Source: Minisyncoccota bacterium (GTDB lineage Bacteria; Patescibacteriota; Minisyncoccia; 2-02-FULL-40-12; GWA2-44-9). Taken from it: a stretch of 28,119 nucleotides of DNA. The notes below the pieces were generated by a model, which was given only the letters and a program-made list of their open reading frames with translations, ran no database searches and had not been told where the DNA came from. A program made the translations under genes and the position numbers. The stretch covers positions 1-28,119 of the forward strand of contig DATDZX010000043.1 in NCBI GenBank assembly GCA_036516715.1, written 5' to 3'. Positions 429 to 14,089 of this stretch are shown one piece after another (position 1 is the first letter of the stretch; the number at the start of each line of letters is the position of its first letter).

Positions 429-1944
429 ATACACCCTCCTTATTATTCTAGCGATTCTTTTTGCTTCCCCCTTCATGGGCCAGGCGACTGATGTCCACTA
501 TCTGGTTAAAGAATTCACGCTTGATCCGGCGGCAAGATTAATCGCCAGAACCGTCTTTCAAAATTTGTCCCAGTCTCTTGTTTCTCAAATTCAAGGAAAG
601 GGTAGAGATGGAGGACCGGCTTTTGTAACCAATTGGCGGAATTTTGAAACTGATGCCCAATACCGAGGGGAGGATATCTTCCGGGTTATCCTCGCCTCTT
701 CTAAGCTTTGCGGATACATAGACGATGAGATCAAGAATATTTTTGGCGCCAAGACAAAGATACCCCTTGCCGGTATCAACACCCGAGTCGGCAGCCTAGA
801 ATCATTCGGCTCCAGGGTTAATTGTACATTGCCTCAAGGATTTGATTTGGCTAAATATCAAAAAGATTTTAAAGGAAACGGCGGCTGGCAAGTTTTTAGC
901 CGGCTATCGGAACCTCAGAATAATTACTACGGTGTCCTCCTTGAATCACTTAATGAATTGGGTAAGCAAAGCGCTCTTGAAGTAAGTGCCGATCTTAATG
1001 AGGCCTTAGCAAATGATGGATTCCTTTCTGCCCGCAAGGGGCGGGCCGGGAATGATAGCTGCCAAGGCCGAGGTGCGAATGCAAAATGTGTTGTCCTTGG
1101 TAATGTTGTTACTCCCGGAAAGCTTCTGGGCGAAACGGTGGCTAATACCATAGACCAGGACCTAAACTGGTTGGTCAGTTCAGATGAAATATCCGAAGTA
1201 ATGATTGCTGTTGTAAACGCAACTATCAGCCGGCTGGCCAACCTGGCAGAAAGCACCGCTTCTTATCCGGATCCCAAGCTCGACGAAGCCCAGCTATTAA
1301 AAGAAGAGTACTGCACAGCGGATAAACCGAGCAAAAGAGCTATCAGCACTTATGGAAAGATATTTCCTGGCTATTCCGGGGGAGGCACCGACAGCCCTTG
1401 CAAATCGATAAGGAACAACGACAATCCCTACCCATACCAGCAATGTGTTTTGGCCTGCTTCAAGGCCGTCGGGGCTATCCCGGCTAACATATCCGTGCCA
1501 CCTCTTCCCTCCGGCAGCTCTTTGCCTGAAAGTCCGAGCCCAAGTAGCGCCCCAACACAAACTACTAATCCCACAGCTAGTCCCACCCCTTCTCCAAGTA
1601 CTTCCTCCCCAACGTCTCTTCTTTCTGACCTTAAAGCCGAAAGAGACAAATATGGTAATACCCTGACAGAAGATGAGGTTGGTAAGCTGCTAAACGCTGT
1701 GGCCTGGAAAAATAGAGGGGCGGGCTGGGTTTTACTGGGTAAATCATCGGGCGCAAATTGCCCTTCGCCTAGCGGCCCTAAAATCTCATGCGACTTCCTA
1801 TATCATAAACCTTCCAGGAGCGGGTTTGATGTTTTAATCGACTCAGATTCCAAAGCAACGCCAACCTGGCAAGGGCCGGACACTGTTGTTAATAGCCTTT
1901 TAGCCAGTGGCCAGAGAACTCTAGTTGACCCCATCCAACCGTGA
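412..1944 (+). CDS. Exported Cys-rich modular protein (signal peptide, Pro/Ser/Thr linker, small C-terminal domain)
   Basis: N-terminal hydrophobic signal (YTLLIILAILFASPFMGQA), 10 Cys, PST-rich linker PPLPSGSSLPESPSPSSAPTQTTNPTASPTPSPSTSSPTS. Overlaps both neighbours. Confidence 0.85.
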   Translation: MTQRSKYTLLIILAILFASPFMGQATDVHYLVKEFTLDPAARLIARTVFQNLSQSLVSQIQGKGRDGGPAFVTNWRNFETDAQYRGEDIFRVILASSKLCGYIDDEIKNIFGAKTKIPLAGINTRVGSLESFGSRVNCTLPQGFDLAKYQKDFKGNGGWQVFSRLSEPQNNYYGVLLESLNELGKQSALEVSADLNEALANDGFLSARKGRAGNDSCQGRGANAKCVVLGNVVTPGKLLGETVANTIDQDLNWLVSSDEISEVMIAVVNATISRLANLAESTASYPDPKLDEAQLLKEEYCTADKPSKRAISTYGKIFPGYSGGGTDSPCKSIRNNDNPYPYQQCVLACFKAVGAIPANISVPPLPSGSSLPESPSPSSAPTQTTNPTASPTPSPSTSSPTSLLSDLKAERDKYGNTLTEDEVGKLLNAVAWKNRGAGWVLLGKSSGANCPSPSGPKISCDFLYHKPSRSGFDVLIDSDSKATPTWQGPDTVVNSLLASGQRTLVDPIQP

Positions 1945-4403
1945 AGAAAACAGCCCGCCAACTATTCATTTTTCTTGTTGCTCTGTCTCTTCTTTTGCCT
2001 TTTATCTCCTTACCCCTAGAAGCGAAGGCTTGGTCCGCCACCGATTCTTTGTCGCTACTACTCAGCTGGGGCGGGGGTAGGTACTTCAGGGGCCTGGCCG
2101 TAGATGCTCTCACCACCATCTTTGAATGGGAAGGGAAGTTGCTCAGCACCATGGCCAATTTCATGAATTGGGCCATATATCTTCGGCCGTACCCCAAGCT
2201 GGCCGTAATCACTGGTGTTTGGAAGATTTTAAGGGATTTCGCTAACATGCTTTTCATCCTGGCCTTAATCTGGATGGCTTTTGCTACCCTCTTTGGTAAG
2301 AAAGATTACGCTTTCGCCACCCTGATCAAGAATTTCCTTATCGTCGCCGTCCTAATTAATTTTAGCCTTGTTCTGGGCGGACTGGTTATTGATACAACTC
2401 AAGTCGTTTCGAATATATTTTTAACCTCCATCGGTAACGTGGGGGATAGGTTTGGAGAATATCTTAATCCAAGCCTCCTTTTCCCGAACGCTCCAGAGGT
2501 TGGTGGCGGGGTAACATCATTTTCCCAGTACAGTAATCAGGTAGCGGATAAGCTGGGAGCGTCTTTGATTACCCTTATCTTCACTGTTATTCTTTTGGGG
2601 ATTCTTTTATTCAGTTTCACTACCGCCGCTTTGTTCGCTTTAGCCCGAGTACCGATTCTCTGGGTCTTACTTACCATCTCGCCCATTGCCTGGATGGCAT
2701 ATATCATGCCCGGAACGAGAAAGTTCTGGAACAATTGGTGGACTGAGTTCGTGGCCTGGAATATTTTCTTGCCCATCTATCTCTTCTTTATATATATCGG
2801 CTTGGCTTTTTTGAGCAAACAAGGGGAAATACTAGCCGCGGTGGCAGGGACCCAGAATATTACCCAGGGGGTAGTGGACTCCGGATTAAGCTCTCTTACC
2901 TTCGGCCTATTTTTCTTCTATCTTTTCACCGCCTATATCCTTATTCAAGGCCTCTCTTGGGCCAGGTCCTGGTCTGTTTTGGCCACTAAAGGTATCGGGG
3001 GTAGTGTCAGTAAGAGGTTCGAATCAAGGATTGACTGGGCAGCTGGAACGGCTAAGAATATTACTGGTATATCCGCTGGACAGGCAGCCGCACAAAACAG
3101 ATACAAGGCGATTAAGGAGGGGGCCACAGCAAGGTACGGACAATTCCAACAGGAAGGCTTCCAAAACCGCTTCTTAAGAAATATTTATGGCGGCAAATCG
3201 GCCCAGGAACAACGAGAGGCAAAATGGAAGGAACGGTTTGGCATTGAAGGATCTAAAGACGCGCAACTTAAAAAAGACATCGGAAATTGGAAGAATAAGT
3301 ATCAGAATATGGACAATTCTCAGCTTCGGGCTCAGATGTCGCAAGGCCAAGAATATCAGAGGCTGGCTGCTAGAGAGATTCTTCAAAGCCGAAATCAACT
3401 TAGCCACGCAGAGCAGACACAAACATACGATCTTTACGCAAAAAATAATAGGATTAGCGCTGAAAAGTTTGCTGAGGGCCTTAACTACGGCAATATGTCT
3501 TCTGCTGACCGGGCAAACTGGATTAATAAGGTGCAACGAAATGAATTGAGAAAAAAGATTCAAAATACTCGTGCTGAAAAAGGAGACTTTACAAATCTGG
3601 CGGACATAAGGGCAGGCGCCACTATTTATACTACTGATTCAGAGAGGGCTGAATTTCTTAAAAAGGCAGGACGGCGAATCGCAAATCCGAGAGATCTTGC
3701 CCCACTTATATCTACCGGAAGTACCGAAGAGCAGCTAGCTGTAAGAGAAATCATGGCTGATAGGGGCGCATTGCGTGGTTCTGAATTACGAGATACCTAC
3801 CTCCTCCATGGAGATGGTACTGAAGCAGCAAGAAAATTCGCTTCAGATAAGGTTAAGTTCGACAAACTTACAGCGGTGGACAGGGCTACATGGTTTTCTT
3901 CGCCCGATGTTACTGACCCAGATACCAGGAGAAAGGTGGTTGAAATAGCCATGGATAAAGGCGACTTTGCTACCAGTGCTCAACTTGAAAATGCCGCTCG
4001 CTTGGTTAACCCTGATGGCACTGATTTGTTTGAAGGCCTTGATGACAAAACTGAACTTTTGAAAAAGGCCCATAAAAACAACTTTCTTCAAGCTGTGCAA
4101 GCCGAGGCCACTATAACCGGATTGGCCCCTGCCACAGTTATGTCTGAACATATAAGAAGAGCAAAACCTGAGACTCTTGCTGAATTCTCGACCACGACTT
4201 GGAGTGATGCTGGTTTTGTTGCGGCAGTGGGAGCGAGAGTAACGGCCCTACAAACAGCCAATAACCGTAGAGTGATCAATGTCCCACCAGCTCCACCGGA
4301 AGTGGTGCCTGGGGCTGGAGATAACTTTGTTGCCAAATTAAGAGAGGCGGCTAGTAGTGATGCAACTAAATTGGCAGCAATAAGCACAATAACTCCTCCT
4401 TAA
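1941..4403 (+). CDS. VirB6/TrbL-like polytopic membrane protein with a long repeat-containing C-terminal tail
   Basis: Signal peptide, then about 7-8 hydrophobic segments in the first ~350 aa (W..LRDFANM.FI, LINFSL..GG..ID, R.PILW.LL..SPIAW..YI.P), followed by a hydrophilic tail. Lies upstream of PrgI and VirB4. GTGA overlap with the previous gene. Confidence 0.75.
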   Translation: MKKTARQLFIFLVALSLLLPFISLPLEAKAWSATDSLSLLLSWGGGRYFRGLAVDALTTIFEWEGKLLSTMANFMNWAIYLRPYPKLAVITGVWKILRDFANMLFILALIWMAFATLFGKKDYAFATLIKNFLIVAVLINFSLVLGGLVIDTTQVVSNIFLTSIGNVGDRFGEYLNPSLLFPNAPEVGGGVTSFSQYSNQVADKLGASLITLIFTVILLGILLFSFTTAALFALARVPILWVLLTISPIAWMAYIMPGTRKFWNNWWTEFVAWNIFLPIYLFFIYIGLAFLSKQGEILAAVAGTQNITQGVVDSGLSSLTFGLFFFYLFTAYILIQGLSWARSWSVLATKGIGGSVSKRFESRIDWAAGTAKNITGISAGQAAAQNRYKAIKEGATARYGQFQQEGFQNRFLRNIYGGKSAQEQREAKWKERFGIEGSKDAQLKKDIGNWKNKYQNMDNSQLRAQMSQGQEYQRLAAREILQSRNQLSHAEQTQTYDLYAKNNRISAEKFAEGLNYGNMSSADRANWINKVQRNELRKKIQNTRAEKGDFTNLADIRAGATIYTTDSERAEFLKKAGRRIANPRDLAPLISTGSTEEQLAVREIMADRGALRGSELRDTYLLHGDGTEAARKFASDKVKFDKLTAVDRATWFSSPDVTDPDTRRKVVEIAMDKGDFATSAQLENAARLVNPDGTDLFEGLDDKTELLKKAHKNNFLQAVQAEATITGLAPATVMSEHIRRAKPETLAEFSTTTWSDAGFVAAVGARVTALQTANNRRVINVPPAPPEVVPGAGDNFVAKLREAASSDATKLAAISTITPP

Positions 4404-4404
4404 T

Positions 4405-4857
4405 ATGTATAGCCTATATAGCCCATATGAAGTTGACTTGGATAATTGTCTTCGGGACCGAAGAGCTTGGGAATCTTTTTCAAATAAAATAAAAAGTCTT
4501 CCTGGCCCACTTAAGCATGCCCTCTTTGCGGCGGAAACCGCCGCCTATATTCAAAGTCTTTGTCTTTTATACAAACTTTCCGATAGTCAATCGGCTGAAA
4601 TTGCCAGAATCACTAGGGATATTATCTTGGGCGATCTGCTTGTAGGGGACATGGTCAAAGCCCTTTCAGATAAAACTGGTCTAGATCAAAATTCCAGCAA
4701 AACCCTAGCTGAATCTATCGCAAAAAAAGTTTTCCTTCCAGTTGTTCAAGAGTTAAAAGAACATCAAAAAAATAGACCTGAAAAAACAGGGCCAACCAAA
4801 GGCGAAATAAGCGACCTTAACCCCCATAATGTGGTAAACTTAAGAGAAGACAAATGA
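4405..4857 (+). CDS. Hypothetical cytoplasmic helical protein of the T4SS-like operon
   Basis: 150-aa ORF 1 nt after the previous stop, with an ATGA overlap into prgI. No TM segment. Confidence 0.8.
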   Translation: MYSLYSPYEVDLDNCLRDRRAWESFSNKIKSLPGPLKHALFAAETAAYIQSLCLLYKLSDSQSAEIARITRDIILGDLLVGDMVKALSDKTGLDQNSSKTLAESIAKKVFLPVVQELKEHQKNRPEKTGPTKGEISDLNPHNVVNLREDK

Positions 4858-5159
4858 GATTTCAAGTGCCCCAATTCGTTGAAACAGAAGTTAAAATAAT
4901 CGGCCCCCTTACTTTAAAGCAATTTCTTTGGGTGGCGGCTGGAGCTGTCCTTCTGTTTCTTTTCTTCAACACCTTAAGAGGTATCTGGTTCTTTGTGGCC
5001 GCTATTCCAACAGTAGTCATCGCCTGCGCTATGGCCTTCCTTAAGATTAATGACCTAACCTTGGTAGAATATGTGTCTTCTTTCTTTTCTTTCCTATCCT
5101 CTCCTAAAAGATATGTCTTCAAGAAAGCAACCGAAAAGACATACTTAAACAATGGCTAA
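4854..5159 (+). CDS. PrgI-family (VirB3-like) membrane protein
   Basis: Characteristic N-terminus MRFQVPQFVE.E.KIIGPLTLKQF, two TM helices, C-terminal SP..YVFKK. Confidence 0.85.
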   Translation: MRFQVPQFVETEVKIIGPLTLKQFLWVAAGAVLLFLFFNTLRGIWFFVAAIPTVVIACAMAFLKINDLTLVEYVSSFFSFLSSPKRYVFKKATEKTYLNNG

Positions 5160-5814
5160 CAATTCAACCCAAAAACTAATCGAGGTTAGCGATATTCAAG
5201 ACAGCATCATCTTAACCAAAGATGGCGCCTTGCATTCAATTCTTGAGGCCTCAGCCATCAACTTTGAATTAAGATCGGAAGACGAGCAGATTGCCATTAC
5301 CCAGAACTTTCAAAGATTCTTGAATTCCATTGATTTCCCAATCCAGATAATGGTTAGCTCCCGCCAGCTCTCCATGGAGCCATACCTCCAACTCATCGAC
5401 CAGGCGACTAACGGCCTTGCCAATGAGCTCCTAAAGATCCAAGGGCTTGAATATCAGAAATTCATCAAAGAGCTCCTTGAACTCTCAAACATTATGTCTA
5501 AGAAATTCTATATCTGTATTCCTTTCTATCCCATAGAGGCTCCTTCTGGAACAGACATTAAAAGGGGATTGTTGGGCTTCCTGAAGCCTTCTTCCAGACA
5601 AGGCCCCCAGTTGTCGCCGGAAGACATTGAGAAGTATCGGCCACAGATGCTCCAGCGGGTGAACCTTGTCTATGACGGCCTCTTGGGGGCCAGCCTCAAG
5701 ACCAGGCTCTTAGAAGGCAATGAATTAGTGAATCTAATCTACGGATATTATAACGCCACCACTGAGGCGCCTTTAAATAAAGAAGCAACAACGGAATATG
5801 AATCCAAACAATAG
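5152..5814 (+). CDS. TraC/VirB4 N-terminal-like partner protein
   Basis: INFEL.SE.EQ.AI...FQ.FLNS.DFPIQI motif typical of the gene between prgI and virB4 in these clusters. Overlaps both neighbours. Confidence 0.7.
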   Translation: MANNSTQKLIEVSDIQDSIILTKDGALHSILEASAINFELRSEDEQIAITQNFQRFLNSIDFPIQIMVSSRQLSMEPYLQLIDQATNGLANELLKIQGLEYQKFIKELLELSNIMSKKFYICIPFYPIEAPSGTDIKRGLLGFLKPSSRQGPQLSPEDIEKYRPQMLQRVNLVYDGLLGASLKTRLLEGNELVNLIYGYYNATTEAPLNKEATTEYESKQ

Positions 5815-7552
5815 CCCAAAAACATCATTGAGTGAGCTTCTCGCTCCTTCAGCCTTAGCCATCACCCCCAACTATATCCAAGTGGGGGATAAGGTGGCGA
5901 GGACTTTGGTTTTGGTTACTTATCCCCGCTACCTCAATACGAGCTGGTTTTCTCCAGTCATTAATCTTGACCAGGAATTTGATATCTCGATATTCGTTCT
6001 GCCAACCCATACGCCGGATGTTCTAAAACAGCTAAGAGACAGGCTCGCTAAGCTTGAAGCCCAGGCAATGGAAGAGGCATCAAAAGGAAAAGTCAGAGAC
6101 CCCCTCCTTGAAACAGCCATCCAAGATATTGAAACTTTGCGGGATAAGCTCCAGCAGGGGACGGATAAATATTTTGAGTTGGGGATATATATTACCTTTT
6201 ACGAGAAAGACTTAAAGAAATTAAACGAAACAGAATCCAAGATCAAGGGCTTACTAGAATATCAGTCCATATTCTCAAGACCATCAACATTTAGAATGCT
6301 TGATGGATTTAATTCAACTCTGCCTTTGACTCTTGATCGCTTAGCCACTCACACTTCCCTAAATACCGAGCCTCTTTCTTCTGTCTTTCCGTTCATATCA
6401 TTCGATCTAACATCGAATAACGGAATACTTTATGGTATTAATACCCATAACAATTCCTTGGTGCTATTTGATCGTTTCAATTTAGAGAATGCGAACTGTA
6501 CAGTATTCGGCATGAGTGGTGGTGGTAAATCCTACACTGTTAAGCTTGAAATCTTACGAAGCATGGTCTTCGGTACCCAGGTTATTGTCGTCGATCCGGA
6601 AGATGAGTACAAATACTTAGCCGAAACAGTCGGTGGTACCTCAATTAAGATATCAATTAACTCAGACCAACACGTTAATCCATTCGACCTGCCGATACCA
6701 AAAGAAGGAGAGTTTCCAGCGGATGTCTTTAAGTCGCACATTCTTGACCTTACCGGCCTTCTAAGGTTAATTCTGGGGAATCTTACCCCAGAAGAAAGCT
6801 CTATTCTTGATGAAGCCCTTCTCCAAACTTACGCCGTTAAAGACATTACGCCTGGATCAGACTTTACCCAAGCCACACCCCCCCTTCTTTCGGATCTCCA
6901 AAAAATTCTAGAGGGTCTCACTGGAGCCGAATCAATGGCGATTCGCCTTAAAAAGTATACCGAGGGAACGTTTGCTGGATTTCTAAACAAACCCACGAAT
7001 GTACCCCTGGATAATCAGTTGATTGTTTTCAGTATTAAGGAGATGGAGGAGGAACTCCGGCCTATCGCCATGTATCTGATTCTCACACATATCTGGGTCA
7101 CGATCCGACGAACCCTTAAAAAGAGAATCCTGGTGGTTGATGAGGCTTGGTGGTTGATGAAGTATGAGATTGGAGCTAACTTCTTGTCCAACATCGCCAA
7201 AAGAGCCAGAAAATACTATGCCGGCCTTACAACTATCTCCCAAGATATCCCTGATTTCTTGGCCAGCTCTCAAGGAAAAACAATCCTCACCAATTCATCT
7301 ATTCAGATATTGATGAAGCAATCGCCGGCCGCAATTGATGTTGTCCAACAGACATTTAATCTGACTGATGCCGAGAAATTCTATCTCCTCGACGCCAGGG
7401 TTGGTTTTGGTCTCTTCTTTTTGGGCCAAAATCATGTTGGTATCAGAGTTGTCGCCTCCTATGCTGAAGACCAGATCATTACTTCTGACCCAAGACAGTT
7501 GTTAGAAATAGAAAAAGCCAAAGAAGAGTGGGCTAAATCACAGAAACAATAA
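5798..7552 (+). CDS. virB4: VirB4-like (TraG/ConE-type) secretion ATPase
   Basis: Walker A GMSGGGKS, VVDPEDEY motif, Walker B LVVDEAW, RARKY..GL..ISQD motif. Confidence 0.9.
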   Translation: MNPNNSPKTSLSELLAPSALAITPNYIQVGDKVARTLVLVTYPRYLNTSWFSPVINLDQEFDISIFVLPTHTPDVLKQLRDRLAKLEAQAMEEASKGKVRDPLLETAIQDIETLRDKLQQGTDKYFELGIYITFYEKDLKKLNETESKIKGLLEYQSIFSRPSTFRMLDGFNSTLPLTLDRLATHTSLNTEPLSSVFPFISFDLTSNNGILYGINTHNNSLVLFDRFNLENANCTVFGMSGGGKSYTVKLEILRSMVFGTQVIVVDPEDEYKYLAETVGGTSIKISINSDQHVNPFDLPIPKEGEFPADVFKSHILDLTGLLRLILGNLTPEESSILDEALLQTYAVKDITPGSDFTQATPPLLSDLQKILEGLTGAESMAIRLKKYTEGTFAGFLNKPTNVPLDNQLIVFSIKEMEEELRPIAMYLILTHIWVTIRRTLKKRILVVDEAWWLMKYEIGANFLSNIAKRARKYYAGLTTISQDIPDFLASSQGKTILTNSSIQILMKQSPAAIDVVQQTFNLTDAEKFYLLDARVGFGLFFLGQNHVGIRVVASYAEDQIITSDPRQLLEIEKAKEEWAKSQKQ

Positions 7553-8226
7553 TGCTTTTTCTTGTTGCCAGCCAAATAGACCAAGGGCCCGACCCGGAAA
7601 TAAATCGGGCTATCGCCTTGGCCATGGAACAGGCGATCCACCAAGAAGAGCAGAAGCTGGAAGCGGTTGTTGATGAAGGAAAATCTTTTCGGAAACCATC
7701 TAAGATAAAGTATGGCTTTCTGATTATTTGTGCTGTTATCAAAGATCTCCTCGATATCCTTGCTATTCCCGCCGCGGCGACTGTCGCTGGATATTTTGTC
7801 CTTAAGGCCATTTCGGTTGTTATTTCAGTTTTGATTCTTGCCGTTTTCTGGTTTACTAGAACCAAGCAAAAAAGAGCCGAAAAATATATCGATGAAATCG
7901 GAGAAGTCCTCGCTGAGATCCAAGAAAATATAGCCCATTATACCCGCCTAGCCCTTCGTACCGCCAAGATCGCTCGGCGAGTCCCGGGTGGGGGCAGAAT
8001 TGCAAGACAGGTCCCTAGGTTATTGGTCAGAGCCAGAAGAGTGGCCAGAAAAAATCCGATCACTAAACTTTTGTTCGCGAGCGCCCTAGACCTTGTTCCC
8101 ATAATCGACGTTGTTCCTTGGACATCTCTAGGAGTAGCCCTGAGTTATCTAGATGAGAGAAAAAGCTTCCAGAATGCATATACCGCGGCGAGTGAAGCCG
8201 AGGAAATGGTCCTGGAGCCAGCCTAA
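7552..8226 (+). CDS. Membrane protein with an Arg-rich amphipathic segment
   Basis: TAATG overlap with virB4. Two or three hydrophobic segments, a basic stretch, and C-terminal LDLVPIIDVVPW. Confidence 0.8.
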   Translation: MLFLVASQIDQGPDPEINRAIALAMEQAIHQEEQKLEAVVDEGKSFRKPSKIKYGFLIICAVIKDLLDILAIPAAATVAGYFVLKAISVVISVLILAVFWFTRTKQKRAEKYIDEIGEVLAEIQENIAHYTRLALRTAKIARRVPGGGRIARQVPRLLVRARRVARKNPITKLLFASALDLVPIIDVVPWTSLGVALSYLDERKSFQNAYTAASEAEEMVLEPA

Positions 8227-9291
8227 ATGTCATTCACCAAAAACCAAAACATATTAATTTTTACCCTCCTCGTCGCCTTGGCTGGAACTTTGTCATACCT
8301 TTTTCTCCTTCCCCAAGACAACTCATACCAGAGAGGGGCCTTGATTGATCGCTTTGACACAGTGGCCACAACCGCAGAAGAAGATTACCGGCCCATTTTA
8401 GTGCCTTTAGGGAGCGACGAGGCTGTTTCTTTAGCATCTAGCCTGAAAGGAGAGGAAGTTTTGTATTATGAAGTCAGCACGGGTAGAACATATTCTTTTG
8501 ACCCAAAGACTCGAACTAGGGAGGTTGTGTCAGAAAATATTCTTGAGGGATTTGAGCGGTCAATCTGGTCACCCGCAAGAAAAGAGGTGATATCTCTATT
8601 CACCACCCGCCAGGGCCAGGAGTATCGATACTACGACTTTGAATCAAAAATATCTACAACATTGCCCAAGGGAATATCTTCAGTTGTTTTTTCACCCGAT
8701 GGCTCCCGTATTGCATACTTCCTCCAAAAAGAAGGTGGGGATAATCAAATAATGGTTAGCCGACCGGATGGCTCACTGCCAAAGGAAATTCTCAAAACAA
8801 GAATACCTTCATTAAATATATCTTGGCCTAAAGAAGAGATGCTTTCCTTGCAATATAAAAAAGAGGGGGGAGAAGGTGGCCTCTACACCCTCACTCTTTC
8901 TGGAAACTTAGAAAAAAAGCTGAGTGGGGCTCCATCTTTGTCCGTTCTTTGGTCTCCAAGCGCAGAACAGCTTCTTTATTCCACAGAAGACCCTAGCGGG
9001 GCCACAAGTTTTTATATTATGCGTGGCCAAGAAACAAAAAAGATTAACATTGAGGCTTCCTCTGAATTGTGCGCCTGGGACAACAACGAGGAAAATATTT
9101 TTTGTTTAGTATCATCGCGGGAAAGCGCCGGTGAGGTGGCCCTCTCCTCATTGGACGCCAAAACCTTAGAGACCACAGTGATTCGACCCAGACTAGATGT
9201 AAGGCCAAAAGAAGTCCTCTTGACTCGTCTTAACGGCTATCTTATTATTCTGGACCGCCACAACCAGCTCTACGCCGCTCCACTAAACTAA
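8227..9291 (+). CDS. Membrane-anchored TolB/WD40-like beta-propeller protein
   Basis: One N-terminal TM, then recurrent blade motifs (IWSPA, VFSPDGSRIAY, ISWPK, LWSPSAEQLLY, CAWDN). Confidence 0.75.
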   Translation: MSFTKNQNILIFTLLVALAGTLSYLFLLPQDNSYQRGALIDRFDTVATTAEEDYRPILVPLGSDEAVSLASSLKGEEVLYYEVSTGRTYSFDPKTRTREVVSENILEGFERSIWSPARKEVISLFTTRQGQEYRYYDFESKISTTLPKGISSVVFSPDGSRIAYFLQKEGGDNQIMVSRPDGSLPKEILKTRIPSLNISWPKEEMLSLQYKKEGGEGGLYTLTLSGNLEKKLSGAPSLSVLWSPSAEQLLYSTEDPSGATSFYIMRGQETKKINIEASSELCAWDNNEENIFCLVSSRESAGEVALSSLDAKTLETTVIRPRLDVRPKEVLLTRLNGYLIILDRHNQLYAAPLN

Positions 9292-9314
9292 CAGAGGCCC
9301 CTCGGCCTCTGTTA
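9289..9314. terminator. Probable bidirectional terminator between the convergent T4SS-like and jag operons
   Basis: Perfect 11-bp inverted repeat taacagaggcc-cctc-ggcctctgtta whose outer ends are the two stop codons. Confidence 0.75.
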
Positions 9315-9785
9315 TAACGGTTTAATCACTATTCTTCTTTGGGGTTCGTTGCCAATGCTTTCGGTGGTAATATCAGGATATGCCGCTAGCTCCATGTGGA
9401 CGATTCTCCGCTCATGGGAAGGCATAGGCACCAGGGCTTCGGCTTTTTGAGTAGTTCTGACCCTCGTCACGGCATGCTTGGCCACGTCGATAAGGTAGGT
9501 GGCTCTTGATTTACGATAGTCGTTTACATCCAGAATAACAGGTAGCGTCTGCTTTGTTTTCTTGGTGAGGATGGCTTTGACAACATGCTCAAAGGCCTGT
9601 AGATTTTGGCCATTTTTACCAATGAGGAAGCGGGCGTTCTCGGGGGCGTAGACGGACACAGCCAAAGAAGGGGTACTATCATACTCGTTTTCCTTAAGCT
9701 CAACCTGGCATTCCAGGTTCATGTAGCCGGTGATCTTTCTGACAACGCCGGTGATATCTTCTTTGTGTTCTGAAATAATATTCAT
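9312..9785 (-). CDS. jag: Jag/EloR (KhpB) RNA-binding protein, KH + R3H domains
   Basis: KH motif LIGKNGQNLQAFEH and R3H motif MPSHERRIVHMELA. The ATG at 9785 (ATGA overlap with the yidC stop) is preferred to the track's TTG at 9872. Confidence 0.9.
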   Translation of the reverse strand: MNIISEHKEDITGVVRKITGYMNLECQVELKENEYDSTPSLAVSVYAPENARFLIGKNGQNLQAFEHVVKAILTKKTKQTLPVILDVNDYRKSRATYLIDVAKHAVTRVRTTQKAEALVPMPSHERRIVHMELAAYPDITTESIGNEPQRRIVIKPL

Positions 9786-10468
9786 TTCTTCTTTTGGATA
9801 TATGTTTGTTCGCCGATGGAAAAGAGGGTTGTGGCGATCCAATACAGAATTAGGCCGGCCGGCAACTTCCATCCGATAATTATAATGAAGAGGGGGAAAA
9901 AATACAACATTTGCTTATTTAGCGCCGCCATTTCATTTCCCGCTGCTAAAGAGGTATTGGCTGCGCTTTGCTTGGCTTGTAAGAACTGAAGGACACCAGC
10001 AGCTAAAACAAGGCTAATGTTGCTCTTGGTAATATCAATTAAACCAAGAAACATTTTGTTTATCACCTCCGGATTTTTAATAAAAGAATAGAGAAGGGAA
10101 AGGCTTTCTGGATTTAGCCCAGCGATAAAGGCTTGGTAAAGAGCAATTAGGATTGGGAGTTGGATGATAAGCGGGAGGCAGCCCCCAAGAGGATTAACTT
10201 TGCTTTCTTTATATAGTTCCATTATGGCTTTATTTTGAGCCACTTTATCACTTTTGTATTTTTCCCTAATCTCCTTAATTTTAGGATTCAGCTCTTGCAG
10301 CGCCTTCTGGGACCTCTGGGTTTTTATAGACAAGGGCAGGAAAATAACTCTAATTAGGACTGTAAGGATGATTATGGCCATGCCAAAATCATGGCCGGGA
10401 ATAAAATTGTATATCGCTACAACGATATTAAATAAGGGTCGGTAGAATAGTTCTTGATAAATGGCCAT
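9782..10468 (-). CDS. yidC: Membrane protein insertase YidC/SpoIIIJ (short form without a periplasmic domain)
   Basis: FGMAIIILTVLIRVIFLPL, NPLGGCLPLIIQLPILIALY and LPAGLILYW motifs, plus conserved synteny. Confidence 0.95.
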   Translation of the reverse strand: MAIYQELFYRPLFNIVVAIYNFIPGHDFGMAIIILTVLIRVIFLPLSIKTQRSQKALQELNPKIKEIREKYKSDKVAQNKAIMELYKESKVNPLGGCLPLIIQLPILIALYQAFIAGLNPESLSLLYSFIKNPEVINKMFLGLIDITKSNISLVLAAGVLQFLQAKQSAANTSLAAGNEMAALNKQMLYFFPLFIIIIGWKLPAGLILYWIATTLFSIGEQTYIQKKK

Positions 10469-10470
10469 AT

Positions 10471-10704
10471 TTATTGAATGGGGTCATACCCGCCCTGAGA
10501 GAAAGGGTGGCACCGACACAAGCGGGCAGCAGCCTTTATGGCCCCTTTACGTGGGCCGTATTTTTCTATTGCCTCGAGGGCATACTCGGAGCAGGTCGGC
10601 TGGAATCGGCAAGGAGAGTAAATAAAAAAAGGAGGCTTAACTTGCCATAACCATTGAGATACTGACTTATACCTTTTGATAAAATTAGTAAGGATTCTTT
10701 TCAT
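10471..10704 (-). CDS. yidD: Membrane protein insertion efficiency factor YidD
   Basis: [19 protein letters not shown] and [15 protein letters not shown] motifs. Confidence 0.95.
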
Positions 10705-10708
10705 GTAT

Positions 10709-11047
10709 TTATCTAATACTCTCTAGGAGACGGCGTAGTTCTTCTTTTGCCTCTTTAAGGTTTTCTTTGGCCTGACGAGACTGAACAATTACGATGATAT
10801 CTGTATTTAAAACTCCTTTTTTGAAATATTCTCTCATCGTTTCACTGAGTGTCCGTCGGATTTTGTTCCTTTGAACAGCGCTTTTTGAAATCTTGCCCGA
10901 GACAACAACTGCTCCCCTCGATTTTTCTTTGGGAGAAGGTTTGTGTCGGAGAGTAAGCATCCGCCCCCTCACTGTCCGTCCGGTTTTAAAAATGGTGTCA
11001 AAATCTTTCTTTTTTCTGACCCGGTTATCTTTTTTAAGGGCCGACAT
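10709..11047 (-). CDS. rnpA: Ribonuclease P protein component
   Basis: [11 protein letters not shown] and the RNR-like motif [11 protein letters not shown]; sits between rpmH and yidD. Confidence 0.9.
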
Positions 11048-11184
11048 TAGACGGTTAGTTGCTTCCGCCCTTTCCTTCTCCTCCGGGACAAGACATTTCT
11101 TCCAGACTTTGAATTCATGCGGGAAAAGAAGCCGTGGGTTCTGTTCCTTTTCTTCTTTTTTGCTTTAAAAAATCCCTTCTTCAT
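11047..11184 (-). CDS. rpmH: 50S ribosomal protein L34 (45 aa; not in the ORF track)
   Basis: Hand translation: [51 protein letters not shown] and RR.KGR..LTV motifs, TAATG overlap with rnpA, divergent from dnaA. Confidence 0.95.
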
Positions 11185-11212
11185 TGTTAGATAATGTTTA
11201 TTTTTATTATGA

Positions 11213-11241
11213 AGTATGGCATTTTACTCCGCTCGCGTCAA
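11213..11241 (-). promoter_or_regulatory. Probable sigma70 promoter of the rpmH operon
   Basis: Minus strand TTGACG-17 nt-CATACT with TG at the extended -10 position. Confidence 0.55.
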
Positions 11242-11396
11242 TTTAATGGTTGGATTAATATTCCTGATGGTATTTTTTGTTTGTCAATATTTACTCTCAG
11301 TCTTCCACCTGATATAAACACCTTGTCCACTAGACTATACTCTTCCGTTCTTGTTTGATGAGAATATAATGAGGATCGGATATCACTAACCTCTAC

Positions 11397-12767
11397 ATGA
11401 CAAACGAAGAATTATGGAAGGCGGTGTTGGGAGAGATGGAACTATCGCTTACGCGGGCAAATTTTACTACTTGGTTTAAGAATACTGCAATAATCTCTAG
11501 GGACCGAAACCAGATTGTGGTCAACGTCCCAAATGGCTTTATTAAGGAATGGCTCGAAAACAAGTTTAACCGGAAGATTTTGGATTCCATCCGCGGTCTG
11601 ACCCCTGAAATCAGGGAGGTCCGCTATACCGTCGGCAAACCTAAGCCAGAATTAATCCGCCAAGACTTCTCGTCTATCATTATGGAGAAGGAGCTGGAAA
11701 CCAAGGCAGATATTCCAGCCGATGCCGACATTGACCGAAACACCAATCTTAATAAGAGATACTCTTTTGACTCATTTATTGTTGGTTCAAGTAACGAATT
11801 GGCCCATGCCACCTGCCTTGGGGTAACTAAAGGGTTGGGCCGGACGTATAACCCTCTTTTCCTTTACGGCGGTGTAGGCCTCGGAAAGACCCACCTCCTT
11901 CAAGCGGTTGGCAATAAGGTGGCAGAGAACAAAGACCGAAAGGTAATGTATATATCTGCTGAGAAATTCACGGCTGATATTGTTGAGGCGATTAAAAACA
12001 AAACTATTGAGGATCTAAAAAACCACTACGCAAAATTAGATCTTTTAATGATTGATGACGTCCAATTCATCGCCGGCAAAGAGAAGACTCAAGATATTGT
12101 TTTCTCTACCTTTAATGAACTATACAGCAAGAACCGTCAGATTATTCTTTCCTCCGATCGACCGCCCCAAGCCATTACGGCCCTCGAAGAGCGCCTTAGA
12201 TCTCGTTTTGGTGGCGGAATGACGGCGGATATTAATTTGCCAGACTACGAAACAAGGCTGGCAATCTTAAAGCAGAAGTCTATGGAAAAGAAGTATGAAT
12301 TGGCTGATGACATTCTTTCATATATCGCCACCCATATTCAAAAAAATGTCCGCGAATTAGAGGGGGCTCTTAATAGAATTATTGCTTTCAGCCAAATATA
12401 TAACCGGGTTCCGGATTTAAAGGAATCTAAAAGCATCCTCACGAGTTATTTGGCAGCTCCATACAAGAAAACATCTCCCCAGAGTGTTTTGAAGGCGGTA
12501 GCTGATTTTTACAGCATCTCTCTTCCTGATTTGTCTAAAAGAAGTCGTAAAAAAGAGGTGGTTCGCCCGCGCCAAGTCGCTATGTTTCTCTTAAGAGAGG
12601 AGACGAAGCTCTCTTTTCCTGAAATCGGACAAAAATTGGGAGGACGAGATCATTCAACAGTTATCCATGCTTGCGAGAAAATACGAGAAGAATCATCGAT
12701 CGAAGAATCATTAAAACAAGAGTTGGTAATGATTAAAGAAAGAGTTTATAACTCTTTTGATAAGTAG
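11397..12767 (+). CDS. dnaA: Chromosomal replication initiator DnaA
   Basis: NPLFLYGGVGLGKTHL, DLLMIDDVQF, RELEGAL and the domain IV signature RQVAMFL...GGRDHSTVIHA. Confidence 0.99.
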   Translation: MTNEELWKAVLGEMELSLTRANFTTWFKNTAIISRDRNQIVVNVPNGFIKEWLENKFNRKILDSIRGLTPEIREVRYTVGKPKPELIRQDFSSIIMEKELETKADIPADADIDRNTNLNKRYSFDSFIVGSSNELAHATCLGVTKGLGRTYNPLFLYGGVGLGKTHLLQAVGNKVAENKDRKVMYISAEKFTADIVEAIKNKTIEDLKNHYAKLDLLMIDDVQFIAGKEKTQDIVFSTFNELYSKNRQIILSSDRPPQAITALEERLRSRFGGGMTADINLPDYETRLAILKQKSMEKKYELADDILSYIATHIQKNVRELEGALNRIIAFSQIYNRVPDLKESKSILTSYLAAPYKKTSPQSVLKAVADFYSISLPDLSKRSRKKEVVRPRQVAMFLLREETKLSFPEIGQKLGGRDHSTVIHACEKIREESSIEESLKQELVMIKERVYNSFDK

Positions 12768-12994
12768 TGGATAAATCGTGGAGAATATGGATAAGTGATT
12801 TTTTATCCATACACTCTCCTCTTATTATCCTTAATTTATACGAAGCTTATTAACAGAAACTTTAAAAAATAAACCTTCTAAAATTCAGATAAAACCTTCT
12901 TTAAAACAATTTTTAAAAAAGTTTTCAACAAAAATTATTCCCTTAATAGTAATAATAAAAATAAATATATTAAGTATATTATTATGAATATTAA
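12766..12994. other. Probable replication origin oriC
   Basis: dnaA-dnaN intergenic region. One-mismatch DnaA boxes at 12766-12774 (agtggataa), 12786-12794 (tatggataa) and 12803-12811 (ttatccata); weaker boxes at 12777, 12825, 12847 and 12922; very AT-rich 12943-12994. Confidence 0.8.
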
Positions 12995-14089
12995 ATGAAA
13001 CTAACAATAACTCAAAAAAATATTTATAAAGCTTTATCCCTAACCGAACGCGTTGTTACCAAAAACGCTTCTTTGCCTATTTTAAATAATGTTTTAATAA
13101 AAACAGAAAATGGGCGGCTTAAGATAGCCGCTACAAACCTAGAAATTGGAATAACCTGTTTTGTTGGGGCGAAAATTGACGAACCAGGAGAAATTACCTT
13201 ACCAGCAAAGATACTAACCGACTTTATTTCCGCCATTACTGATGAAAAAATAATACTTTCTACAAAACAAAGCACAATGTCTATTGTTTCAGATAAATAT
13301 AAAACCCAGATTTTAGGAGTTGATCCAAAAGATTTTCCAATTATTCCAAAGATAAAAACACAACCTTTTTGTAAGATAGAATCTAGCCTTTTAAAGGAAA
13401 TACTTGTTTCCGTCGCTGACTCGGTGGCCGGCTCTGAAACCAGGCCTGAACTTTCAGGGGTTTTTCTTAAATTTAAAAAGGATAAGATAATCTGTGCCTC
13501 GACTGATAGTTTTCGCCTCTCTGAAAGGGTGGGGGCGATAAAAGCATCAGAAGAGAAAAGTGTTATTTTGCCCAAGAACACCGTCTCTGAATTAATTAGA
13601 ATAACCAACGAAGTTGGTGGTTCCATGGAGGTGAGGGTGGGAGAAAATCAAATATCTTTTTCTAGCGATGATTGTGAGGTTATTTCTCGCCTTATCGACG
13701 GGGTTTACCCGGATTATCAAAAAATTATTCCAGAAAAGTCTCTTTCTCAGATTTTGGTTAAAAAAGACGAGTTGGAGAAAAATACAAGGTTAGCTGGAAT
13801 ATTTTCTTCTAGGATTTCAGATGTAAAAATAAGTAGTTCAAAAGACGTCCTGACAATTACTGCCCAAAACTCTGAAAAAGGAGAAGTGGAAGCAAAGATG
13901 CCAATCGTTCTTAAAAACGATCCATTTGAGGTATCCCTTAATTACCACTACCTCCTTGATGGACTTAAACACATCTCTTCAGAGCATGTGATCATTGAGT
14001 TTACTGGAGAGGGAAGCCCGCTAGTCATAAAACCAAGCACCCCAGAAAAATTATTCACCTATATTATTATGCCCCTAAGACAATCATAA
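12995..14089 (+). CDS. dnaN: DNA polymerase III beta sliding clamp
   Basis: LPILNNVLI, ATNLEIGI, TRPELSGV, STDSFRLS, SRLIDGVYPDYQKIIP and the terminal IIMPLR. Confidence 0.99.
   Translation: MKLTITQKNIYKALSLTERVVTKNASLPILNNVLIKTENGRLKIAATNLEIGITCFVGAKIDEPGEITLPAKILTDFISAITDEKIILSTKQSTMSIVSDKYKTQILGVDPKDFPIIPKIKTQPFCKIESSLLKEILVSVADSVAGSETRPELSGVFLKFKKDKIICASTDSFRLSERVGAIKASEEKSVILPKNTVSELIRITNEVGGSMEVRVGENQISFSSDDCEVISRLIDGVYPDYQKIIPEKSLSQILVKKDELEKNTRLAGIFSSRISDVKISSSKDVLTITAQNSEKGEVEAKMPIVLKNDPFEVSLNYHYLLDGLKHISSEHVIIEFTGEGSPLVIKPSTPEKLFTYIIMPLRQS

Follow-up and report, generated by a model that had tools for sequence, protein, structure and literature searches.

The window analysed here is the whole stretch from position 1 to 28,119 of the + strand of contig DATDZX010000043.1, from the Minisyncoccota bacterium assembly GCA_036516715.1. 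An open reading frame (ORF) of 820 amino acids (aa) in it encodes the VirB6 subunit of a chromosomal, origin-proximal and relaxase-free type IV secretion system (T4SS) typical of Patescibacteria. The hydrophilic tail of this protein holds an ancient tandem duplication of a module of ~123 residues, and the distal part of the tail lies in a cassette of which two alleles coexist in the same metagenomes. The gene and its parts, as derived from the ORF list and its translation, hydropathy and AlphaFold2 (AF2) models with their predicted local distance difference test (pLDDT) values, are the following.

1941-4403, + strand: extended VirB6-like gene, 820 aa, identified from the ORF list and translation; its GTG start overlaps the stop of the upstream gene
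Ahead of the hydrophobic core, + strand: signal-peptide-like N-terminal helix, aa 3-30, from hydropathy and AF2 helices
2118-2975, + strand: hydrophobic VirB6 core, aa ~60-345, from hydropathy, AF2 helices (pLDDT mostly >88) and a structural match to TrwI/VirB6
2976-3311, + strand: basic helical linker, aa 346-457, net charge +11, isoelectric point (pI) 10.1
3312-3680, + strand: repeat unit 1, aa 458-580, eight helices, net charge +6, pI 9.8
3684-4082, + strand: repeat unit 2, aa 582-714, eight helices, net charge -5, pI 5.1, with a 10-aa insertion before the last helix
3649-3667 and 4051-4069, + strand: 19-nucleotide (nt) remnant of a DNA repeat, 84% identical, encoding the FLKKA / LLKKA motif that closes each unit
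4083-4400, + strand: C-terminal subdomain of the tail, aa 715-820, with helices, a small beta-hairpin and a conserved P..P...PG.G motif

In Pfam, PF04610 (TrbL/VirB6) matches aa 106-329 with 21.4 bits (E 2.4e-4), which is under its cut-off of 25.9. Homologues with 40-47% identity carry PF19590 (TrbL_3), and the named relatives among them are Candidatus Parcubacteria, Paceibacterota and Yanofskybacteria. The full-length AF2 model, built with 97 homologues, has a mean pLDDT of 87, with the tail above 90. The best PDB matches of this model in Foldseek are TrwI/VirB6 of R388 (8rt9_F, 8rtd_L and 7o3v_J; probability 1.0, TMt 0.45-0.46), although the E-values of these matches are only 0.02-0.08. The VirB6 core is strongly conserved over the 97 homologues. 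Six to seven hydrophobic segments precede aa 340 and a hydrophilic tail of 475 aa follows them, an arrangement that agrees with the definition of extended VirB6 proteins by at least five hydrophobic helices and a large hydrophilic C-proximal domain (PMC12857230). The sequence-only reading, made from the letters of this DNA without any database search, had taken the protein for an extended VirB6 of a T4SS, and the hydrophobic core with its long tail, the match to TrwI/VirB6 and the operon described below all support that assignment.

The same reading had proposed a tandem duplication of ~125 aa at 3309-4076 (aa 457-712). BLASTP of unit 1 against unit 2 (aa 450-580 versus 581-730) confirms it with 52.8 bits, 37 identities in 126 positions (29%) and E 2e-14, and the units are now refined to aa 458-580 and 582-714. 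The Smith-Waterman score of the pair is 129, significantly above the 28.5±4.7 (maximum 52) obtained from 2000 composition-preserving shuffles (z≈21). The alignment of the two units is in register from end to end, with the loops, the conserved G, W, R and F positions and every motif pair named earlier included, and a profile made from one unit retrieves the other at E 1e-45 or better. Local alignment to either unit detects no third copy in aa 380-450 or 715-820. The two-unit layout is also kept in the closest homologues (P0003-P0007).

Across 122 aligned codons the two units have 43% nucleotide identity, and third codon positions are 29.5% identical, which is about random. The 19-nt remnant at the ends of the units is the sole DNA-level repeat remaining between them. 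Since third positions are saturated, the duplication must be old, as had been concluded correctly from the lack of a visible DNA repeat. The internal similarity could alternatively have come from convergence or compositional bias, given that the sequence is all-alpha and charge-rich and that hardly any repeat (19 nt) is left in the DNA. However, the distance from composition-preserving shuffles, the end-to-end match in register, the retrieval of one unit by a profile of the other, and the position of the second units as a clade nested among first units (see below) effectively refute such an origin, and we regard it as having next to no chance of being correct. The duplication by itself is an ordinary evolutionary event.

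Modelled alone with AlphaFold2, the two-unit segment reaches a pLDDT of 94.8 and a predicted template-modelling (TM) score of 0.86, with 8+8 helices, and the two units are predicted to form a single rigid all-alpha solenoid body. DSSP states of the model match at 109 of the 122 aligned positions and the eight helices of each unit are in register. The expectation that both halves have the same predicted fold is therefore borne out, and the 16 helices over two units agree with the alpha-helical repeat module suggested earlier. Structural neighbours of the tail in the ESM Atlas are HEAT-repeat proteins with TM-scores of 0.5-0.6; they were found with feature-search scores of at most 0.66 and are treated as leads only. 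Foldseek against the PDB returned no match to the tail at E <= 1e-3 with either the full-length or the two-unit model (TM-score at most 0.38), and the top of its list is occupied by ARM, HEAT, TPR and 14-3-3 proteins. No family was found for the tail in Pfam or NCBIfam. Among PDB sequences the unit profile matched only an annexin, at E 0.17, which was taken as chance.

The model also points to a finer periodicity within each unit.

3312-3488 (A) and 3489-3680 (B), + strand: sub-repeats of unit 1, four helices each
3684-3860 (A) and 3861-4082 (B), + strand: sub-repeats of unit 2, four helices each

In the AF2 model each unit follows a 4+4 helix pattern, in which a second helix of 13 residues recurs and the period is ~62 aa. 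Alignment of half A with half B over 100 units by hhalign gives a score of 21.8 (P 8e-5, probability 60%), compared with 8.3±1.7 for column-shuffled controls (0 of 150 reach 21.8) and 12.0 for a reversed one. Because of this score, and because half-unit and 1.5-unit architectures exist among relatives, it is probable but not proven that each unit consists of two four-helix sub-repeats of ~60 aa.

For the distribution of the module, a unit profile of 12 rows (A2) was searched against 1.84 billion cluster representatives at E <= 1e-3, and 72 proteins were matched. Every unit-bearing match of at least 600 aa is positive with the hidden Markov model (HMM) of the N-domain and has the unit at about aa 350-650, and the shorter matches resemble fragments. 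Three long, low-scoring matches (E 6e-6 to 4e-4) have no N-domain match and contain at most part of a unit. Profile searches of whole genomes detect the module in 26 of the order's 105 species, but in no more than 4 of a 401-genome sample of the phylum, two of these being marginal. In these searches the module is an unnamed domain restricted to the VirB6-like tails of one Patescibacteria order.

Most module proteins have a single copy of the unit, and in about a dozen others a C-terminal half is added to it. P0001, P0003, P0004, P0006, P0007, P0029 and P0059 carry two full copies, as do a few fragments; of the order's species genomes, G000, G427 and G428 alone have two, and the congener G429 has one. 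With an iterated profile, many homologues that had seemed to be without a unit match its first half alone. Copy-number variation in Patescibacteria, sought with the unit HMM as the sequence-only reading had suggested, is thus present, with observed numbers among relatives of about 0.5, 1, 1.5 and 2.

A maximum-likelihood tree was built from 89 units, and in it the ten full second units group together (support 93/91, recovered in 94% of bootstrap trees), in a clade nested among first units. As the full second units form one clade, a single duplication probably gave rise to all of them. Against this it must be said that single-copy proteins stand amid two-copy ones, so that one duplication needs later losses or transfers. 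The first units of two-copy proteins fall into two groups mixed with single-copy proteins, and the backbone of the tree is unresolved. Both copies have been maintained, with equal HMM scores of units 1 and 2 in P0004, P0006 and P0007.

More interesting than the duplication is the polymorphism of a cassette that begins within the tail and ends within the downstream gene.

3668-4818 (~1.15 kb), + strand: strain-variable cassette with unit 2, the VirB6 C-terminus and most of the 150-aa gene, in comparison with 1891-2912 of contig L006
4405-4857, + strand: small soluble protein of 150 aa, with no transmembrane segment or signal peptide and with a conserved C-terminal NVVNLR motif

Contig L006 comes from an independent ENA assembly and encodes P0003. 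Over 1880-3600 and 4815-13161 its identity to the window is 99.7-100%, but over about 3620-4815 nucleotide identity falls to 40-63%. Between the two alleles the distal VirB6 tail has 54% protein identity and the 150-aa protein 37%. Contigs of public metagenomes in Logan give the same picture in other data. In run X2 one contig joins 3667 to 4819 across 1130 other letters, and further contigs of the same run carry the allele of the window without any difference. A contig of run X1 spans the left boundary into the allele of the window, and loose ends at 4819 in runs X1 and X3 read as the L006 allele. Both cassette alleles are real and coexist in the same metagenomes.

On the left the breakpoint falls at the end of the conserved FLKKA-coding 19-mer (3649-3667), and on the right at the conserved C-terminal NVVNLR motif of the 150-aa protein. 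With breakpoints at these two places, the exchange takes in unit 2 and leaves unit 1 constant. A similar pattern is seen independently in a second lineage. Its contigs L007 and L008 come from sister samples and have 98-99% identity, apart from a divergent stretch of ~1.05 kb (L007 3689-4739 / L008 7050-8145) that corresponds to the VirB6 tail (aa ~350-700 of P0021/P0023). All homologues with N-domain identity of at least 75% were also compared in pairs, and the tail generally differs much more than the core does.

A separate observation concerns 3605-3622, where six clustered substitutions distinguish the window from Logan contigs of three runs; these contigs keep the allele of the window to 3864. 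The substitutions suggest either a third mosaic haplotype or a shifted breakpoint just ahead of the cassette.

A word-based homologue search with the 150-aa protein returned only the protein itself. With a three-sequence profile applied to whole genomes, its family was found in 71 of the 105 genomes of the order, and it is confined to Patescibacteria. The gene lies directly downstream of VirB6 in every genome where both were located. The idea that this small gene tracks the number of units was rejected, as its family is distributed more widely than the module itself (71 versus 26 of the 105 genomes, the latter with profile A2).

A variable C-terminal region accompanied by a co-varying small downstream ORF, with sharp recombination boundaries, is also what would be seen if the distal tail and the small gene were a polymorphic toxin/immunity-like pair borne on VirB6. 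However, the distal-tail alleles are clearly homologous, at the 54% identity given above, and are made of the same solenoid module instead of unrelated toxin domains. Neither a toxin nor an immunity family is matched, the small gene is a conserved single family in those 71 genomes, and the second lineage exchanges its tail without any small gene. We therefore consider such a pair highly improbable.

The next matter is the side of the membrane on which the tail is located. In the 97 homologues, the 80 aa past the last hydrophobic helix contain on average 10 K/R and 4.4 D/E; in 99% of homologues the tail has a net positive charge, and its mean Cys count is 0.03. Topology from hydropathy is ambiguous, with seven segments placing the tail outside and six placing it inside, and it was not used as proof. 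If aa 207-256 are read as one span, the protein has its N-terminus outside, five spans and its C-terminus inside. The experimentally mapped topology of A. tumefaciens VirB6 likewise has an outside N-terminus, five spans and an inside C-terminus. The tail-inside topology agrees with the positive-inside rule at every loop and the tail-outside topology does not. A cytoplasmic location of the tail is favoured because of the basic juxtamembrane linker, the absence of Cys and the signal-less neighbour that co-varies with it.

Several points weigh against a cytoplasmic tail. In the cryo-electron microscopy structure of R388, only two N-proximal helices of VirB6 cross the membrane and the rest is periplasmic (PMC9259494, PMC12857230), and the predicted transmembrane helices of VirB6 sit in the periplasmic stalk (PMC9259494). 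If the present protein is arranged as in R388, its tail could come out on the outer side of the cell. A review describes the topologies of extended VirB6 proteins as uncertain (PMC12857230), and surface exposure has been proposed for those of Rickettsiales (PMC3556328). Moreover, five tails of 50 kDa would crowd the space between the membrane and the VirB4 hexamer, and the positive-inside rule is weak for long domains. Hence, of the earlier statement that the tail is probably cytoplasmic, the location keeps its support in the basic linker, the lack of Cys and the signal-less neighbour, but the certainty is reduced by an R388 VirB6 that is mostly outside the membrane and by the unreliability of topologies drawn from hydrophobicity.

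The corresponding alternative, modelled on R388 VirB6 and Legionella DotA, is that the tail lies outside the cytoplasmic membrane. Most of the protein would make up a pentameric stalk or protochannel, which the solenoid tails would prolong across the wall in the direction of the host cell. The duplication would then lengthen their reach, and the variable distal half would be exposed and either in contact with the host or antigenically selected. The match of the N-domain to TrwI/VirB6, where only two helices span the membrane (PMC9259494), agrees with this, as do the proposal that C-terminal domains of extended VirB6 proteins protrude and the surface exposure reported in Rickettsiales (PMC3556328). 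Sharp allelic cassettes, present here in two lineages, typically mark parts that are exposed or determine specificity, and no equivalents of VirB5 or of the outer membrane core complex were seen in the operon. On the other hand, there is a strongly basic linker past the last hydrophobic helix, an export signal is missing from the co-varying neighbour, the tail has neither Cys nor wall-binding motifs, and a tail-outside topology breaks the positive-inside rule. An extracytoplasmic tail is possible, but in our view unlikely.

The genes that follow are those of a T4SS.

4854-5159, + strand: PrgI/VirB3-like gene, 37.7 bits against a cut-off of 27
5152-5814, + strand: TrsD/TraC-like gene, overlapping VirB4 by 17 nt
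5798-7552, + strand: VirB4 ATPase (PMC12102498)

VirB6 thus has PrgI, TrsD-like and VirB4 genes as neighbours, as is expected of a VirB6 gene, and this synteny is kept in contigs L004-L008. The cluster continues into jag-yidC-rnpA-dnaA, and contigs of relatives have the same order. A frameshift that splits VirB4 was considered and rejected, since 5152-5814 and 5798-7552 are a normal pair of TrsD and VirB4 (PMC12102498). Two further ORFs are syntenic with the T4SS genes in L004-L008: one at 8227-9291, encoding a beta-propeller protein of 354 aa with a weak PD40/TolB-like match, and the other upstream at 412-1944, of 496-677 aa and without a family match. A 34-nt stretch of the TrsD-like gene (5260-5293) recurs with three differences in contigs of 16-20x in all four metagenome runs. 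These deeper contigs probably come from a relative of higher abundance in which this conserved segment of the gene is also present.

No VirD4/TcpA-like gene is present in the T4SS operon, and an alpha-solenoid is plausible as a receptor surface. The sequence-only reading had suggested that the tail may replace a missing type IV coupling protein (T4CP) as the substrate receptor. However, the genome bin (G000; 520 kb, 72% complete) contains two T4CP-like ORFs away from the operon, on C39 (L001 1-1989) and C36 (L002 655-2205). TrwB_AAD_bind matches them with 40.1 and 37.7 bits against a cut-off of 20.5; T4SS-DNA_transf gives 21.5 against 20.1, and TraG-D_C is also matched. The genome is therefore not one without a T4CP homologue, as would be the case in a Ptl-, Brucella- or ComB-like T4SS. 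VirD4-like components have also been reported in T4SS loci of Patescibacteria (PMC12857230). With two such ATPases above Pfam cut-offs in the same bin, the suggestion finds no support, and we think it very unlikely that the tail substitutes for a coupling protein.

Taken together, these data lead us to favour, at somewhat better than even chances, an explanation in which the duplicated solenoid tail is a protein-docking scaffold at the cytoplasmic face of the machine, with a constant and an exchangeable half; that the tail is a cytoplasmic docking scaffold at all is a little more probable. According to this explanation, the hydrophilic tail of ~475 aa is an all-alpha solenoid built from lineage-specific modules of ~123 aa. 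One tandem duplication of the module, in an ancestor within the family, would have produced a rigid rod of 16 helices. Both copies would then have been kept under selection and yet have diverged, unit 1 being basic and constant among strains and unit 2 acidic and variable. We infer that the proximal part, which is basic and conserved, remains associated with the core machine (VirB4/TrsD/PrgI), and that the distal part, unit 2 with the C-terminal subdomain, binds a variable partner. Most plausibly this partner would be the 150-aa protein encoded immediately downstream, the distal tail and the 150-aa gene being exchanged as one recombination cassette. The duplication would in this way lengthen the docking surface and divide it into a constant and an exchangeable half. 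Of all this, the data show the duplication, the class of fold, the confinement of the module to VirB6 tails, the varying copy number and the polymorphic cassette, and the cellular side, the binding partners and any role in specificity are inferred.

Two findings weigh against a partnership of the tail with the small protein. The lineage of P0021/P0023 swaps the tail alone and has no small gene after VirB6, and the joint replacement of tail and small gene in the window may reflect adjacency only. A stronger form of the docking explanation is that the distal tail and the small protein are an exchangeable specificity module. By recombining at boundaries set by conserved motifs, coexisting strains that are otherwise identical would retain different alleles of it, and the duplication would have created a constant half beside the swappable one. 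We put this forward tentatively and hold it to be rather doubtful. If it is true, the choice of partner, substrate or host for the T4SS of this epibiont would rest with the tail.

Comparison with known systems places the locus among the T4SSs of the Patescibacteria clade, which consist of VirB4, TrsD, PrgI/VirB3, VirB6 and a VirB2-like protein (Quinonero-Coronel et al. 2025, PMC12102498). The likeness lies in the gene set and order (VirB6, small gene, PrgI, TrsD-like gene, VirB4), in the chromosomal position by jag-yidC-rnpA-dnaA and in the lack of a relaxase in the locus. This T4SS is essential in Southlakia epibionticum (Wang et al. 2023, as given in the review PMC12857230), and it is the only T4SS shown to be necessary for the growth of its bearer. 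In T4SS literature searched by terms, PMC12102498 and PMC12857230 included, we found no description of the VirB6 tail, the repeat module, its copy-number variation or the strain-level exchange of the cassette.

Among individual proteins, TrwI/VirB6 of R388 (7o3v, 8rt9, 8rtd) is the best structural match to the N-terminal 350 aa (probability 1.0, TMt 0.45), but sequence identity is 13% and TrwI has no comparable tail. HEAT/ARM alpha-solenoids share with the tail a rod of stacked helical repeats, a generic solenoid resemblance only. The tail differs from them in its period, ~62 aa with four helices as compared with ~40-47 aa with two or three, and Pfam shows no HEAT, ARM or TPR match in it, so that we do not count it among the HEAT/ARM proteins.

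The concept of the extended VirB6 reportedly goes back to Alvarez-Martinez and Christie in 2009. Known examples are RvhB6 of Rickettsiales and VirB6-3/-4 of Anaplasma phagocytophilum (PMC3556328), as well as the VirB6 proteins of 700-900 aa in MPF_FA systems; the function of the extended domains is stated as unknown in a review (PMC12857230). The protein described here shares with them a hydrophobic core and a large hydrophilic C-terminal domain, with a repetitive tail that is the most strain-variable part of the T4SS. For such a tail the closest analogy is offered by VirB6-3/-4 of Anaplasma. However, the repeats of Anaplasma are recent tandem arrays at the DNA level, strongly acidic and varying in the number of near-identical units. 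In the present protein the repeat is ancient and its DNA has reached saturation (third-position identity of 29.5%, with the 19-nt remnant), the tail is net basic and confidently predicted as a solenoid, and variation proceeds by replacement of divergent cassettes.

At this locus there is a lineage-specific tail module whose fold is predicted with confidence and whose copy number varies naturally from about 0.5 to 2 units. Together with the natural allele swaps in isogenic backgrounds, these variants are ready material for testing the binding partners of the tail and its side of the membrane. It should be of moderate interest to specialists in T4SSs and in the Candidate Phyla Radiation (CPR). 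The protein belongs to the extended-VirB6 class of a known T4SS type, and what is new in it is the tail module together with its exchange at the population level.

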